Of a DNA stretch of 52,869 bases, positions 5,207 to 41,055 are shown piece after piece (within the stretch, counting starts at the first letter, position 1; each line of letters begins with the position of its first letter). The notes under the pieces were generated by a model. It had not been told where the DNA came from and did no database searches. It saw only the letters and a list, made by a program, of their open reading frames with translations. Origin of the DNA: a bacterium (GTDB taxonomy: Bacteria; Patescibacteriota; Minisyncoccia; CAIUEV01); contig JAJYBC010000001.1 of NCBI GenBank assembly GCA_021779255.1, positions 1 to 52,869 of the forward strand. Reading direction: 5' to 3'. A program made the position numbers and the translations under genes.

Positions 5207-5231
5207 GGGCGGGCACAAGGCCCGCCCCTAC
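5207..5231. repeat. GC-rich hairpin with CTAC tail (REP-like)
   Basis: GGGCGGGC-ACAAG-GCCCGCCC (8-bp perfect stem) followed by CTAC. The reverse complement reads GTAG plus palindrome. Confidence 0.6.
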
Positions 5232-5854: not shown

Positions 5855-5956
5855 GGGCAGGTCGCGACCTGCCCGTACAAGGCCTGCCCGTACAAGCCTT
5901 GCCCGTACTAAATCATTCCCGCCAAGGCCTGCCCGTACAAGATCTGCCCGTACGTA
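5855..5956. repeat. REP-like element: 20-bp perfect palindrome plus five copies of CTGCCCGTAC
   Basis: GGGCAGGTCGCGACCTGCCC (5855-5874), then CCTGCCCGTACAAGG-type units at about 5868, 5883, 5897, 5928 and 5943. Confidence 0.9.
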
Positions 5957-6958: not shown

Positions 6959-7047
6959 GGGACAGGTCGCGACCTGTCCGTACCGACCTGTCCGTACCGA
7001 CCTGTCCGTACCGACCTGTCCGTACCGACCTGTCCGTACCGACTCGG
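6959..7047. repeat. REP-like element: 20-bp perfect palindrome plus a 5x tandem 14-bp array
   Basis: GGACAGGTCGCGACCTGTCC (6960-6979). CGACCTGTCCGTAC repeats at 6970, 6984, 6998, 7012 and 7026, then a partial CGACTCGG. Confidence 0.95.
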
Positions 7048-11157: not shown

Positions 11158-11184
11158 GGGACAGGTCGCGACCTGGCCGGACAG
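11158..11184. repeat. Degenerate REP-like palindrome
   Basis: GGGACAGGTCGCGACCTGGCCGGACAG shares the CAGGTCGCGACCTG core with 5855 and 6960. Confidence 0.8.
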
Positions 11185-30920: not shown

Positions 30921-32180
30921 TTATTTGAGCCATTCTTTGTCGCGTAGTTTTCGATGGTAAGAGATAGCAAAGCGGTGAGCTTCGTTGCGAATTTTTTCAA
31001 TTAATTTTAAATCGAACGGAAAAATATTTTTGTGTGCAGATTTGTCGAATTTATTTTGGTCAAAATATAAATCCAATTTTTTACGAGTTGGACCTTTGGC
31101 TACGGCTAAGATCAAAATATTTTCTAATTTTATTTTTTTAAGTAACTCGGCAGCCATATTAAAATGTCCCTTACCTCCGTCTAGAACTATTAAATCGGGA
31201 TGCGGCCAGTTATGATTAAACCTTCTCGCTAAAATTTCTTGCATCATAGCAATGTCATCAATACCCTTAATATTTTTGATTTTAAATTTACGGTAGTCAG
31301 ATTTTTTAGGTTCGTTCTTCTCAAAAACAACCATTGATCCCACAGCGTAGGCGCCGGAGATATTGGAAATGTCGTAACATTCGATGCGATGTTGCCATTG
31401 TAGAGACGCCCTATAGGGCGTCTCTACAATGGCAACATCATTGATAAAATCGTCCGATAATAATGCTACATCTCGGATGTGTTGTAGGGCAAAAATTTGA
31501 TTGCGAATTTTTTGAGCTTTTTCGTACGCTTTTTTTTGGGAAAATTCTTGCATTTCTTTTTCTAATTTTTTGAGTAAACTATTTTTTTTGCCTCGTAAAA
31601 TCATTTCAATATTGCGGATATTTTTTTTATAATCTGCAGGACTAATTTGGCCGGCGTAAGGTCCGGGGCAATAACCAAGTTGAAAATCAAGGCAACCTTT
31701 TTCCGTTTTTTGTTGACCGGAATGAAAAGGAAATATTTTTTTTAAAATTCGGAGAGCCACGGAAATTTGTTTCCGAGAAGTATAAGGACCGTAAATTTTA
31801 GGCGTTGAATATTTTTTCAAATCAGTTTTTCTAACAATTATTATTCTCGGAAATTTGTCTTTTTTGGTGATCAAAAGATACGAAAAACTTTTGTCATCCT
31901 TAGCTTTAATATTATATTTCGGCTGATTTTTTTTGATTAAGTTAGCTTCCAAAATTAGAGCCTCAAGTGTATTTTGAGTCGATTGAATTTTAATTTTGGC
32001 AATTTGAGAAACCAGTTGTTCGGTTTTATTATCGTGAGCACCAGTAAAATAAGATCCGACGCGATTGCGAAGAGAAGTGGCTTTACCAATATAAATAAGT
32101 CTATTCTGGCTGTCATAAAACTTATAGATACCCGGTGATTTAGGCAGAGAGGAGACAGTTTTTTTGAGATTGAGATGCAT
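30921..32180 (-). CDS. uvrC: Excinuclease ABC subunit C, short form lacking the C-terminal (HhH)2 domain
   Basis: GIY-YIG (PGIYKFYDSQNRLIYIGKATSLRNRV), RIECYDISN and RNEAHRFAISYHR blocks. Only 419 aa. Confidence 0.85.
   Translation of the reverse strand: MHLNLKKTVSSLPKSPGIYKFYDSQNRLIYIGKATSLRNRVGSYFTGAHDNKTEQLVSQIAKIKIQSTQNTLEALILEANLIKKNQPKYNIKAKDDKSFSYLLITKKDKFPRIIIVRKTDLKKYSTPKIYGPYTSRKQISVALRILKKIFPFHSGQQKTEKGCLDFQLGYCPGPYAGQISPADYKKNIRNIEMILRGKKNSLLKKLEKEMQEFSQKKAYEKAQKIRNQIFALQHIRDVALLSDDFINDVAIVETPYRASLQWQHRIECYDISNISGAYAVGSMVVFEKNEPKKSDYRKFKIKNIKGIDDIAMMQEILARRFNHNWPHPDLIVLDGGKGHFNMAAELLKKIKLENILILAVAKGPTRKKLDLYFDQNKFDKSAHKNIFPFDLKLIEKIRNEAHRFAISYHRKLRDKEWLK
31388..31439. repeat. 52-bp perfect palindrome inside the uvrC coding sequence
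   Basis: GATGTTGCCATTGTAGAGACGCCCTA|TAGGGCGTCTCTACAATGGCAACATC. All 26 arm positions were checked pairwise. Confidence 0.97.
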
Positions 32181-32195
32181 TATTTCAGTTTATTT

Positions 32196-35030
32196 TTATT
32201 TGTTCAAAAGTTTCTTTAAAAACTGGCCGGTGTAGCTTCTGGTATTTCTAGCCACTTCTTCCGGTGTACCGGTAGCTACAATTCGTCCTCCCTCTTCTCC
32301 ACCCTCCGGACCAAGATCAATAAGGTAGTCAGCCGTTTTAATTACGTCCAAATTATGCTCAATAACAATGACAGTATTGCCAGCGTTGACTAAACGATTA
32401 AGCACGTCCAAAAGTTTTTTTATATCATCAAAATGAAGACCGGTGGTTGGTTCGTCTAGGATATAGAGAGTATCGCCTCGGCCACGTCGGCTTAATTCGG
32501 AAGCTAATTTTATTCTTTGGGCTTCACCGCCTGACAAAGTGGTGGCGGATTGGCCTAGACTAATATAACCCAAACCAACTTCTTCCAAAACTTTTAGAGG
32601 CTCAAAAATTTCCGGAAAATTTTGAAAAAAATCTTTGGCTTCACTAACTGTCATAGCTAAAACTTCGGCAATATTTTTACCTTTAAATTTGATGTTTAAA
32701 GTTTCACTATTAAATCTTTTACCGCCACAAACATCGCAAGGTAAATAAACGTCAGGCATAAATTGCATTTCTATTTTGAGAAAACCTTCTCCTCGACAGT
32801 TATCGCAACGACCGCCTCTAACGTTAAAAGAAAATCGACCAAGTGAATAGCCGCGAGCTTTTGCTTCTTTACTGCTGGCAAAAAGTTTACGAATAGCCGT
32901 AAAAAAGCCGGTGTACGTGGCGGGATTGGATCGAGGAGTACGACCAATTGGAGATTGATCAATCATAATAACTTTTTTTAGATTCTCGACGCCCATGATT
33001 TCTTGATAATGACCTGGTCTTTCCAAAGAGCGCATAATTTTGGCCGACAAAGCTTTATATAAAATTTCTTCAACCAGAGTTGATTTCCCGCTACCACTAA
33101 CGCCGGTGACACAAGTCAAAACTTTCAAAGGAAAACCAACAGAAAGATGGCGCAAATTATTTTCAGAGGCTCCTTTGATGGTAATTATTTTTTTATTCTT
33201 AATATTGCGACGAAATTTGGGAATCTCAATAGAAATTTCGTGACGTAAATATTGGGCGGTAATGGATTTTTTGTTTTTGAGAATTTCTTTTAGGCTTCCT
33301 TCGGCGATAACTTCCCCGCCTAGTTTTCCAGCTCCTGGGCCGATATCAACAATATGATCGGCCGATAAAATAGTTTCTTCGTCGTGTTCAATAACTATTA
33401 AAGTATTGCCAAGCGAGCGTAGCTGGTGCAGAGTATTTAGTAATTTGCTGTTATCGCGAGCATGCAAACCAATGGAAGGCTCATCTAAAACATAAAGAAC
33501 ACCAACCAGTTGAGAACCGATTTGAGAGGCTAGACGGATTCTTTGCGATTCTCCACCCGCCAAAGTATTGGCTGAACGGTTAAGAGTTAAATAAGAAAGA
33601 CCGACGTTATTTAAAAAACCAAGACGATTTTTTATCTCCTTAATAATTTTATCGGCGATTATTTTTTCTTTGTCAGTGAGCGTTATTTTTTCAAAAAATT
33701 TTAAAGATTGGTCAATACTTTGATTGGAAATTTCGTAAATATTTTTTTCGTGAACTGTCACCAGCAGAGCTTCTTTCTTGTAGCGAGAGCCACCACAGAT
33801 TGAACAAGGTTTTTGAGACATATATTTTTCAATATCTTGGCGCACGGCGTCTGATTGAGTTTTAAAATAACGATCTTCCAGAAAGCCGATAATTCCCCGC
33901 CATTGTAAATTAAAATTCCAAGAAGAGCCGGTTTTGGAATGAAATTTAACCAAAAGCTTATCGGTTGGGTTGTTGCCATAGAAAAGAAGTTTTTTTTGAT
34001 AAGCGGGTAAGTCGTTTATTCGAGCATTTTCCGGAATATTATAAAATTGAGTGACGGCTCGCAAAATTGTTCCTTGATAATTATTTTTTTTATAACTCCA
34101 AGGCATAATGCCTCCCTCGGCAATAGTTTTACTTTGGTCAGGAATAAGCAAGCGCAAATCAATTTCTTTTTTGAGGCCCAGACCTTCACAGGCACTGCAG
34201 GCGCCGAAAGGACTATTAAAAGAAAAAAGACGGGGCTCTAGTTCGGGAAATTCAATCTCGTGAATAGGACAAGCTAAATTTTGATTATAAATTTGTTCCT
34301 GTTTCTGACTCTTGATTTTAAGTAAACCACCCGATAATTTTAAGGCCATTTCTACCTCTTCAAATAAACGGGAAAGATTGTCTTCCTCAATTTTAAACTC
34401 ATCGATTAGGATATCGATTCGATGTTTTTTATAGCGAGCCAGTTTGATTTTAGCAATTTCGCTTTTTTCTTCCAGAAAATAAAATTTGTTATCTATGTAA
34501 ATTTGACGAAAACCGCGATCCCACATTTCTTCGAGCAAAGTAGAATACTCGCCTTTGCGCGATCGAACAACGGGCGAAATAATTTTAATTTTTTGTCCAC
34601 TGCCTAAATCTAAAATTCTTTCAATAATTTCGTCGAGAGATAATTGTTTGATTTCTCGACCGCAAATGGGACAGTGAGGAATGCCGATTTTGGCGTAAAG
34701 CAAGCGTAAATAATCGTTAATTTCCGTCACTGTGCCAACAGTCGAGCGAGGGTTGTGGGAAGTCGATTTTTGATCAATGGAAATAGTGGGACTCAGTCCT
34801 TCGATATAGTCAACGTCCGGTTTGTCCATCTTGCCTAAAAATTGGCGAGCATAGCTCGATAAACTCTCTAGGTACCTTCGCTGACCCTCGGCAAAGATAG
34901 TGTCAAAGGCTAAAGTTGACTTGCCGGAACCGCTTAGTCCGGTAAAAACGATAAATTTATCTCGCGGTAAAACGAGATCAATATTTTTGAGATTATGCTC
35001 TCTGGCACCTTTTACAACAATATTCTGCAT
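32196..35030 (-). CDS. uvrA: Excinuclease ABC subunit A
   Basis: MQNIVVKGAREHNLKNI, two ABC modules (GLSGSGKST, GVSGSGKST, LSGGE) and zinc-finger cysteines. Start trimmed to ATG 35030. Confidence 0.95.
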   Translation of the reverse strand: MQNIVVKGAREHNLKNIDLVLPRDKFIVFTGLSGSGKSTLAFDTIFAEGQRRYLESLSSYARQFLGKMDKPDVDYIEGLSPTISIDQKSTSHNPRSTVGTVTEINDYLRLLYAKIGIPHCPICGREIKQLSLDEIIERILDLGSGQKIKIISPVVRSRKGEYSTLLEEMWDRGFRQIYIDNKFYFLEEKSEIAKIKLARYKKHRIDILIDEFKIEEDNLSRLFEEVEMALKLSGGLLKIKSQKQEQIYNQNLACPIHEIEFPELEPRLFSFNSPFGACSACEGLGLKKEIDLRLLIPDQSKTIAEGGIMPWSYKKNNYQGTILRAVTQFYNIPENARINDLPAYQKKLLFYGNNPTDKLLVKFHSKTGSSWNFNLQWRGIIGFLEDRYFKTQSDAVRQDIEKYMSQKPCSICGGSRYKKEALLVTVHEKNIYEISNQSIDQSLKFFEKITLTDKEKIIADKIIKEIKNRLGFLNNVGLSYLTLNRSANTLAGGESQRIRLASQIGSQLVGVLYVLDEPSIGLHARDNSKLLNTLHQLRSLGNTLIVIEHDEETILSADHIVDIGPGAGKLGGEVIAEGSLKEILKNKKSITAQYLRHEISIEIPKFRRNIKNKKIITIKGASENNLRHLSVGFPLKVLTCVTGVSGSGKSTLVEEILYKALSAKIMRSLERPGHYQEIMGVENLKKVIMIDQSPIGRTPRSNPATYTGFFTAIRKLFASSKEAKARGYSLGRFSFNVRGGRCDNCRGEGFLKIEMQFMPDVYLPCDVCGGKRFNSETLNIKFKGKNIAEVLAMTVSEAKDFFQNFPEIFEPLKVLEEVGLGYISLGQSATTLSGGEAQRIKLASELSRRGRGDTLYILDEPTTGLHFDDIKKLLDVLNRLVNAGNTVIVIEHNLDVIKTADYLIDLGPEGGEEGGRIVATGTPEEVARNTRSYTGQFLKKLLNK

Positions 35031-35049
35031 AACAATGTCTTTTTTTATT

Positions 35050-35469
35050 CTACTTAATAATTTTCCCAATAGCCTTCATAAATTCTTCAAAGTCTCCCAA
35101 ATTATTTTTCGAATAATCAAATATTAACTCGTTATCAGCTTCCCAGTATTGATGAATGAGTTTATTCCTGAATCTGGCCATTTCCTTGAGTCTCTTGGCC
35201 AGCTTCTTACTAATTGATTTTTCTTTTTCTAAAACTTCAAAACACTCTCCAAAAGAAGAAACGCCCTTATTATATTTTTTGGCAGCGACGTGGGCGCAAA
35301 CACTGCCAGTTGCTTCGACAGCTTGAATTAAATAATATTTAACGGCGGCCATATTTTCTTTTTTTGCCCAAAAATCCTTTTTGGGCACACTCGTTAATCT
35401 TTTAATTTCTGACAAGGATTCGTTAATTTCGGAAAATCTTTTTTTAATTTTAGCTTTTTCTAGATTCAT
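35050..35469 (-). CDS. hepT: HEPN-domain toxin HepT (DUF86 family)
   Basis: RFRNKLIHQY is the Rx4H HEPN motif. 139 aa, directly downstream of an MNT gene. Confidence 0.75.
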   Translation of the reverse strand: MNLEKAKIKKRFSEINESLSEIKRLTSVPKKDFWAKKENMAAVKYYLIQAVEATGSVCAHVAAKKYNKGVSSFGECFEVLEKEKSISKKLAKRLKEMARFRNKLIHQYWEADNELIFDYSKNNLGDFEEFMKAIGKIIK

Positions 35470-40892: not shown

Positions 40893-41055
40893 ATTAGTAA
40901 ATTATTTTTAGTACCAATAAACATATTAATAATTTCTAATTCAATTAAGATCTAATTTGAATATTAAATATTAAATCTTAATTTTTTTTGATTTGGTCTT
41001 AGAAATTTTATTAGGTGAACCTGCCTACCGGCAGGCAGGTTAGAAATTTATCTTA

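Follow-up and report, generated by a model that had tools for sequence, protein, structure and literature searches.

The uvrC gene of the window analyzed in this study (the whole 52,869-nucleotide stretch of contig JAJYBC010000001.1, assembly GCA_021779255.1, from a member of the Candidate Phyla Radiation, CPR) contains a 52-bp perfect palindrome at positions 31388–31439. Comparisons with orthologs and with related repeats argue for a two-step history. A GTAG-tagged repetitive extragenic palindrome (REP) hairpin would first have been inserted in frame into the linker between the UVR motif and the RNase-H-like domain of UvrC, and its stem would later have been extended into the flanking codons by replication template switching. 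The probability of the two steps together is estimated at about 0.6. Considered separately, the in-frame insertion is very probable on the sequence evidence, and template switching has slightly better than an even chance of being the source of the extended stem. The host genome (G000) is Moranbacteria-like, measures 843 kb in 50 contigs with ~35% GC and is 94% complete. Its contigs are given C-numbers below, collected loci are given L-numbers, and G004 is a same-family relative.

Palindrome in the UvrC Linker

The palindrome is composed of GATGTTGCCATTGTAGAGACGCCCTA followed directly by TAGGGCGTCTCTACAATGGCAACATC. Its two 26-nt arms pair at all positions (26/26) and no spacer separates them. 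As the earlier note on this DNA had claimed, the 26 pairs lie in frame within the 419-aa open reading frame (ORF) of uvrC (30921–32180, minus strand; TIGR00194, 368 bits). The minus strand of the palindrome codes for DVAIVETPYRASLQWQH, which corresponds to aa 248–264 of UvrC, and supplies the first base of the R265 codon. This segment is immediately N-terminal to RIECYDIS. UvrC possesses a GIY-YIG domain (aa 16–90), a UVR motif (aa 201–234) and an RNase-H-like endonuclease domain (aa 263–406), and the (HhH)2 domain is absent. The UVR, or UvrB-binding, motif (PF02151; 31479–31580, minus strand) is the last structured element before the insert, and the region coding for the RNase-H-like domain (PF08459, E = 3.5e-44; 30963–31394, minus strand) starts directly after it. 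Thus, the Pfam boundaries, with UVR at aa 201–234 and UvrC_RNaseH_dom from aa 263, bear out the suggestion that the palindrome is in the linker preceding the nuclease domain. In the AlphaFold2 model of UvrC (mean pLDDT of 83), aa 242–261 form a coil with pLDDT <50 between confidently predicted domains. The model makes it most likely, as the simplest reading, that the insert is translated and tolerated in a flexible linker. UvrC, which retains all 87 invariant columns of a 50-sequence alignment (87/87), is most likely left functional by the insert.

The 28-bp center of the palindrome, GTAG-AGACGCCC-TATA-GGGCGTCT-CTAC at 31400–31427, is the sole portion that is repeated elsewhere. This REP core has a 12-bp stem that includes GTAG and a TATA center, and it contains the 22-nt sequence GAGACGCCCTATAGGGCGTCTC at 31403–31424, whose GC content is ~64% vs 35% for the genome. 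In translation, the core reads VETPYRASL. The outer arms are GATGTTGCCATT at 31388–31399, which on the coding (minus) strand follows the core as AATGGCAACATC (QWQH), and AATGGCAACATC at 31428–31439, which on that strand precedes the core as GATGTTGCCATT (DVAI). The two arms are exact reverse complements, so that all 12 outer positions pair (12/12). The single other occurrence of the 13-mer GATGTTGCCATTG in the genome is its own partner arm. These outer 12-bp segments do not belong to the repeat family.

The palindrome is far beyond chance. The 22-nt core was found in none of 100 shuffles of the window, and the genome contains 43 perfect palindromes with a stem of at least 12, as against 0–1 in each of five local-composition shuffles. 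The folding energy of the DNA hairpin is −29.7 kcal/mol (z = −14.6) and that of its 91-nt mRNA context is −50.8 kcal/mol (z = −11.1). Moreover, two of the three reading frames of the core, as read from the sequence, meet a TAG. Given that the palindrome is the same on both strands, only one frame can survive inside a gene, and this is the frame observed in all in-gene cases, i.e., uvrC, tgt and dus.

Very Probable In-Frame Insertion of a REP Hairpin

The linker of UvrC, counted from DVALIxxD to RIE, is 20 aa long vs 12–13 aa in five same-family orthologs (58–63% identity). The excess of 7–8 residues corresponds to 24 nt, the 22-nt core and two further bases. In 120 homologs, 16 residues is the most frequent length of the corresponding stretch, which ranges from 12 to 54 aa in distant homologs; it is 23 residues long here. 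The earlier note had proposed an alignment with orthologs as a check for an insertion. In this alignment, the linkers of the same-family orthologs are ~8 residues shorter and the residues in question are absent, and no ortholog carries the same residues on non-palindromic DNA.

Similar to uvrC, the core is in frame in two other genes, tgt (VVETPYRASLP) and dus (DFAETPKLGVSAKS). The linker of tgt (C33:8365-9528) is 19 aa long vs 10–13 aa in four of five same-family orthologs; the fifth, from G004, has a linker of 29 aa with an insert of its own. The linker of dus (C8:16717-17895) is 23 aa long vs 17–23 aa in same-family orthologs. The G004 insert (L042) differs from the REP found here, is 16–17 aa long (NDSPLERGGSPKARRGV) and stands at the tgt position that the REP occupies here; its first part looks palindromic (TCCCCTCT.GAGAGGGG).

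In the proposed history, a hairpin of the form (GTA)GAGACGCCC-TATA-GGGCGTCTC(TAC) would have entered the unstructured linker with a net gain of ~8 codons. The copy would have survived because it came in the only stop-free frame, that of VETPYRASL, and because the linker is disordered and variable in length. The net gain of 7 or 8 aa in uvrC fits the insertion of the core alone, in a linker that cannot be aligned.

The same data bear on whether the palindrome was produced by the assembly, as a fold-back or a chimeric join at a repeated palindromic k-mer. The genome is a metagenome-assembled genome (MAG) from short reads, the core is a repeated inverted sequence and another palindrome (C26:1-56) is found at a contig end. 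A fold-back, however, would continue into an inverted copy of the left flank, whereas the C-terminal half of UvrC resumes in frame after 12 nt. In addition, uvrC, tgt and dus share the same architecture and all three are in frame, and the identical 419-aa protein is recorded on two contigs (NCBI and ENA). The longer of these contigs is 61,590 nt, and a search for contigs encoding the exact UvrC protein returned no further record. An assembly artefact is therefore very improbable.

Programmed translational bypass was also considered and rejected, as the insert is open and in frame and the copies in the three housekeeping genes are all in the stop-free frame. In bypass elements, such as those of T4 gene 60 and the mitochondrial byps, the frame is broken or stops are present, and matching take-off and landing codons are on the flanks.

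Core Copies and RAYT-Like Genes

A genome-wide search for the core, GAGACGCCC-loop-GGGCGTCTC, which the earlier note had recommended, identified 8 copies on 6 contigs, and the reversed control pattern had no match. Three copies, C26:2755, C33:8938 and the one in uvrC, have the TATA loop and an identical 22-mer. Four have loop variants of AAATT, AATTT or GAATT (C8:17656, C16:1733, C16:2014 and C16:2403), and the copy at C17:1072 has one stem mismatch. In most copies, GTA stands before the core and TAC after it, giving a GTAG-tagged hairpin. The uvrC and tgt copies bear both GTAG (5′) and CTAC (3′), and in the copies around a RAYT-like gene (see below) GTAG is one-sided. Among 277 core copies from other phyla, gta stands ahead of the core in about 150.

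The element belongs to the GTAG-tagged REP superfamily, which was defined together with its REPtrons by Di Nocera, De Gregorio and Rocco (2013, BMC Genomics 14:522; PMC3733652). It is a short GC-rich stem-loop with the tag and dispersed copies, and features of a REPtron are found with it. The REP-like character proposed in the earlier note is upheld by the further copies and by the RAYT-like gene that they flank. The likeness to the palindromic elements of Rickettsia (RPEs), which the same note had pointed out, stands as an analogy only; the family is that of the RAYT-associated GTAG-tagged REPs (PMC3733652) and not RPE. Miniature inverted-repeat transposable elements, which are 70–300 bp long with terminal inverted repeats and a target-site duplication, were also considered. 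This assignment was rejected: the repeated unit is 22–28 bp, the TA/TA belongs to the stem and the outer arms are locus-specific.

The core pattern was not found in 60 related genomes, so the insertions are lineage-specific and recent at the genus scale. The 9-bp stem GAGACGCCC/GGGCGTCTC, mostly as tGTA-stem-loop-stem-TACa, was observed in at least 240 contigs, which belong to Acidobacteriota, Chloroflexota, Bacteroidota, Gammaproteobacteria, cyanobacteria, Planctomycetota and CPR. Hairpins with this stem often read VETPxxGVST within long open frames. The wide range of phyla, yet absence from 60 close relatives, suggests a horizontal spread of the REP together with its REP-associated tyrosine transposase (RAYT).

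A search of the genome with Pfam Y1_Tnp found two genes, C48:36498-37055 and C1:36430-37020. The former has AGAGACGGGTCTCAGACCCGTCTCT on both flanks. The flanks of the latter are GGGGCGTATTGCAATACGCCCC-type hairpins, and another such hairpin is in frame (VGAYCNTPL) right after the HxH motif. A third RAYT-like ORF, C16:1800-2324 (minus strand), is flanked by the uvrC-type hairpin at C16:1732-1756 and C16:2401-2427. Moreover, it holds a third uvrC-type copy in frame (ETPNLGVS) at the same position after the HUH motif. The best match of all three ORFs is NF047646 (REP-associated tyrosine transposase), with 69.4, 48.8 and 65.2 bits. Their PF01797 scores are 40.9 and 33.3, above the cut-off of 23, and 18.0, below it. 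The HxH motif, PNHIHG/V, is present in the ORFs, and two of the three are interrupted by a REP just after it. These two genes (in the regions C16:1700-2450 and C1:36390-37020) bear their own flanking REP there, as IIKHIETPNLGVSTN and IRIVGAYCNTPLRD. Each transposase gene appears to have been entered by its own element. Judged by sequence, the C16 ORF with its flanking hairpins is a REPtron arrangement, although the proteins are RAYT-like rather than proven RAYTs. In the proposed history, this RAYT-like HUH/Y1 transposase gene, which is on another contig than uvrC and has the same hairpin on its flanks, would be the cognate transposase gene of the REP family.

Extension of the Stem

The stem of the in-gene copies continues beyond the core. 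In uvrC the extension is 15 nt beyond the 22/23-nt core, or 12 nt beyond GTA/TAC, with arms of gatgttgccatt plus gta. It is 9 nt in tgt (gtcgtggta/taccacgac) and 10 nt in dus (ggattttgca/tgcaaaatcc), and the sequence of the extension arms is different at every locus. Removal of more than the core would leave linkers below the same-family range. Thus, the arms seem not to be net additions, and it appears that the reverse complement of one flank has overwritten the other flank.

Three other observations in this genome are pertinent. First, a murF-like gene (C25:133-1434) contains a REP-free, 49-nt palindrome at C25:848-896 with perfect 22-nt arms. One arm codes for the conserved VFTFGFR, and the other (GAKTKGKN) replaces unrelated residues in an alignment with 12 orthologs that is free of gaps. 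As judged from this alignment, the second arm is rewritten in register with the length unchanged. Second, 11 copies of the CTGCCTrCCGGyAGGCAG repeat are flanked asymmetrically (aaatttctaac ... ggttcacctaatt). In the copy at C8:7891-7928, which is intergenic and just past the end of an ORF, the right flank matches the left one in reverse complement and the copy is a 38-bp perfect palindrome. Given that the duplicated flank belongs to the consensus of the repeat, this symmetrization came after the insertion. Third, one copy of the TCGCGA family (C26:1-56) has a stem extension of 18 nt that 31 other copies lack. Such in-register symmetrization, as read from these sequences, is the characteristic trace of replication template switching at quasi-palindromes, a process known both to create hairpin stems and to perfect them (PMC8794818, PMC7202029). 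The excess of perfect palindromes over shuffled sequence (43 vs 0–1) also speaks for template switching in this genome.

By this mechanism, the nascent strand would fold on the GC-rich REP hairpin in uvrC, overwrite one flank with the reverse complement of the other and return in register. Four codons would thereby be rewritten at unchanged length, leaving the perfect 52-bp palindrome. SbcD (TIGR00619), MutS1 (TIGR01070) and XseA (TIGR00237) were not detected in the genome, and the same searches were positive in most control genomes. The genome appears to be without mismatch repair and ExoVII, which oppose template-switch events in Escherichia coli. The apparent lack of these three proteins is consistent with frequent switching and with tolerance of long palindromes alike, and the palindrome would persist because the genome appears to be without SbcCD.

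Core and extension might also have been acquired in a single step. A break or a stalled fork would be repaired by copying of a REP, whose hairpin snaps back and primes on its own flank, so that the core and one inverted arm are added together (~34–37 nt net, possibly with a small deletion). Such an event would yield a conserved core and locus-specific arms at once, and the linkers of 12–54 aa in distant homologs leave room for a larger net insertion. Subtraction of the core and one arm, however, leaves ~8 aa in UvrC and Tgt and ~11–12 aa in Dus, which are below the same-family ranges of 12–13 (UvrC), 10–13 (Tgt) and 17–23 aa (Dus). The murF-like gene and the C8:7891 copy likewise show in-register replacement, and the single-step origin is improbable.

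The order of the two steps may have been the reverse of that proposed. A template switch or chance would first have given a 28-bp palindrome in the linker, GATGTTGCCATTG-TA-CAATGGCAACATC, and the REP would then have entered its dyad, since hairpin loops of single-stranded DNA are preferred targets of the RAYT-type machinery. The end product would be identical. REPs inside longer palindromes have been described, as have hundreds of empty target palindromes in Thermomicrobium roseum (PMC3733652), and the genome has REP-free coding palindromes. The closest ortholog of dus already has GATTTT...AAAATC around the site. This order nevertheless needs two rare events at one spot in three genes (uvrC, tgt and dus), and it leaves the C8:7891 copy unexplained, the duplicated flank there being part of the asymmetric repeat consensus. 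A perfect GC-rich hairpin, moreover, is itself a natural nucleation point for a fold-back switch. We regard the reverse order as unlikely.

Several points nevertheless weigh against the insertion of a REP followed by extension of its stem. In a search of 5.8 billion proteins, the closest non-self UvrC shared 66% identity, so that there is neither an empty site nor an ancestral linker sequence to compare with. Because the linker is non-conserved, the estimate of 8 codons and the direction of the flank conversion are unprovable. Both arms in dus resemble the closest ortholog (GATTTT...AAAATC), which fits an insertion into a pre-existing quasi-palindrome. The NF047646 scores of the RAYT-like ORFs (49–69 bits) are below the NCBIfam curated cut-off of 80. 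Finally, the absence of SbcD, MutS1 and XseA rests on a MAG that is 94% complete.

Extended stems were also found outside this genome. Of the core copies in other phyla, 8 of 277 have an extension of at least 7 nt, i.e., stem extension is general but rare. The extended copies in other phyla are mostly non-coding; an open frame of at least 60 codons on both sides is uninformative in GC-rich contigs, which have many spurious frames. Confinement of extended stems to intragenic copies was tested on 68 copies of five families and rejected (3/5 vs 21/63; Fisher p = 0.34). In the GGGCrGGTCGCGACCyGCCC (TCGCGA) family of the host genome, 31 copies are unextended and one, at C26:1-56 (L001), is extended by 18 nt. 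The latter is a 56-bp perfect palindrome, GGTCGCGAGGTTTT-GTAGGGGCAGGTCGCGACCTGCCCCTAC-AAAACCTCGCGACC, that starts exactly at the contig end, and it may be real or may mark a break or fold-back point of the assembler.

Palindromes in the Linkers of Other CPR uvrC Genes

Perfect palindromes with a stem of at least 9 that end no more than 9 codons from the RIE motif were found in 6 of 32 CPR uvrC genes, and their six sequences all differ. The genes are those of the host genome, L018 (stem of 14), L030 (stem of 14), L031, L036 and L037. The uvrC of L030 has five more palindromes in addition to that in the linker, six in the gene altogether. L036 has two CCCAACATTsAATGTTGGG units, and L037 (GCA_030679895.1) has a 37-nt palindrome at L037:2256-2292 made of two inverted TGGAAG-loop-CTTCCA hairpins. 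The linker site accounts for 6 of 19 palindromes in ~4% of the length of uvrC. This recurrence is read as tolerance of the disordered linker.

The same recurrence could point to a selected hairpin rather than neutral selfish DNA. The strong stem at the domain boundary would then be retained for an effect on mRNA or DNA, such as pausing translation from one domain to the next, providing a site for RNase III or binding a protein. The stems at this site range from 9 to 26, the palindrome of the host is perfect and its mRNA hairpin is highly stable. On the other hand, 26 of the 32 genes, including all five same-family orthologs, are without a palindrome, and the palindromes present differ in sequence, size and family. 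The core, moreover, is dispersed and found also in intergenic positions and in unrelated genes. Tolerance of insertions by the linker explains the recurrence more simply, and a selected role is improbable, rated at under one chance in ten.

Other Features of UvrC and Other Hairpins in the Genome

The uvrA gene (957 aa; 32196–35069, minus strand) is immediately upstream of uvrC on the same strand, and this gene order is kept in relatives. The best homologs of UvrC are from Candidatus Moranbacteria and other Patescibacteria. A UvrC of 400–460 aa without (HhH)2 is encoded by 34 of 41 related genomes and was found for all 120 best database homologs. Thus, the earlier observation of a short UvrC without (HhH)2 is accurate as to its 419 aa, but not as a local oddity, since this is the norm of the clade. 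For the same reason, a deletion tied to the palindrome was ruled out as the cause of the short length.

Further families of GC-rich hairpins with GTAG or GTAC tags are present in the genome, in which 59 hairpins were catalogued; 68 copies fall into five families. REP-like hairpins of other families in the window are at 5207–5227, 5855–5874, 6960–6979, 11159–11178 and 41021–41038. Their types are GGGCGGGCACAAGGCCCGCCC with CTAC, three of the GGrCAGGTCGCGACCTGkCC type, two of which are followed by GTAC, and CTGCCTACCGGCAGGCAG, which has asymmetric flanks. In an ORF for an ABC-transporter ATPase (C1:10885-12069), after an in-frame GGGCAGGTCGCGACCTGCCC hairpin (RAGRDLP), the 3′ arm of this hairpin recurs in frame as five tandem copies (DLPQPQH x5). 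Each of three long ORFs of C15 (7384-9105, 18774-20123 and 23609-25045) contains two or three in-frame REP-like hairpins (VKTGLRPVS, GAGRDLP), and one of the three (450 aa) contains the Hint/intein-like wording VYDIEVDSTHNFVGNDIFAHN.

Comparison with Known Systems and Implications

Previous results showed an enrichment of intragenic REPs in genes for UvrABCD, RecBCD, PolA and tRNA pseudouridine synthase, where flexible linkers are the probable sites (PMC3733652). The occurrence of the present element in uvrC and in the tRNA-modification genes tgt and dus matches that description closely. Similar to the GTAG REPs described there, the hairpin is GC-rich, tagged and dispersed, flanks a transposase gene and is in frame in Uvr and tRNA-modification genes. 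Different from them, its host belongs to CPR, its GTAG is paired on both sides and its stem runs 12 bp into locus-unique coding sequence. Where REPs lie within palindromes in PMC3733652, the outer palindromes fit a family consensus; here they are copy-specific. Unlike in that description, unrelated palindromes also recur at one UvrC linker. Thus, a REP in frame in a Uvr gene was already known in 2013, and what is new is the gene-specific extension of the stem by 12 bases per side.

Similar to the RPEs of Rickettsia, the element is a selfish palindromic repeat that is tolerated in frame in a housekeeping gene and adds a peptide. RPE sequences end in CGTC, the intragenic RPE-4 and RPE-6 are CGTC-tagged REPs, RPE-1 is longer, and no dedicated transposase is associated with them (PMC3733652). 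Unlike these, the element here is 28 bp, GTAG-tagged and RAYT-associated, and the CGTC tag and the longer unit are absent.

The proposed extension resembles template-switch mutation at quasipalindromes (the Ripley model), in which the reverse complement of the opposite arm takes the place of a stretch adjacent to a hairpin (PMC7202029, PMC8794818, PMC8604942). Many bases change at once, the length stays constant and the stem is perfected. Unlike in those cases, a mobile REP would act as the seed and the conversion would affect coding sequence, and the event is deduced from its end product and parallel cases rather than from an ancestral reconstruction. The nearest precedent for long, perfect and translated inverted repeats in genes is found in the mitochondrial genomes of Nematomorpha, whose coding palindromes are up to 284 bp, have both arms in conserved regions, still yield functional proteins and lack a mobile core (PMC6649704). 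Different from these, the palindrome here is 52 bp and is in a non-conserved linker around a REP. The REPINs of Pseudomonas are REP doublets that form long hairpins and are associated with RAYTs; their conserved REPs form the stem and the spacer forms a variable loop. The palindrome here shares with REPINs the long REP-built hairpin and the RAYT, but here the conserved REP lies at the apex and the outer stem is what varies.

Palindrome-encoded peptides such as VETPYRASL, VKTGLRPVS, GAGRDLP and VGAYCNTPL mark REP insertions in CPR proteins and should not be taken for functional motifs. The uvrC of this genome is a natural test case, as a 52-bp perfect palindrome is tolerated in a repair gene of a genome that returned no match to SbcD. 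Together with the murF-like gene and the C8:7891 copy, it provides concrete sequence evidence for template switching that would reshape coding sequence in ultra-small genomes. More tentatively, mobile REP hairpins may seed in-register template-switch conversion of neighboring codons in repair-poor CPR genomes, a generalization that we hold to be possible rather than probable. If REP hairpins do seed such switching, the mobility of REP and RAYT would be joined to quasipalindrome mutagenesis, and selfish hairpins would grow locus-specific perfect stems, in essential genes included. This mechanism could explain hairpin families with a conserved apex and copy-specific stems, as well as the recurrent, unrelated palindromes of the UvrC linker.

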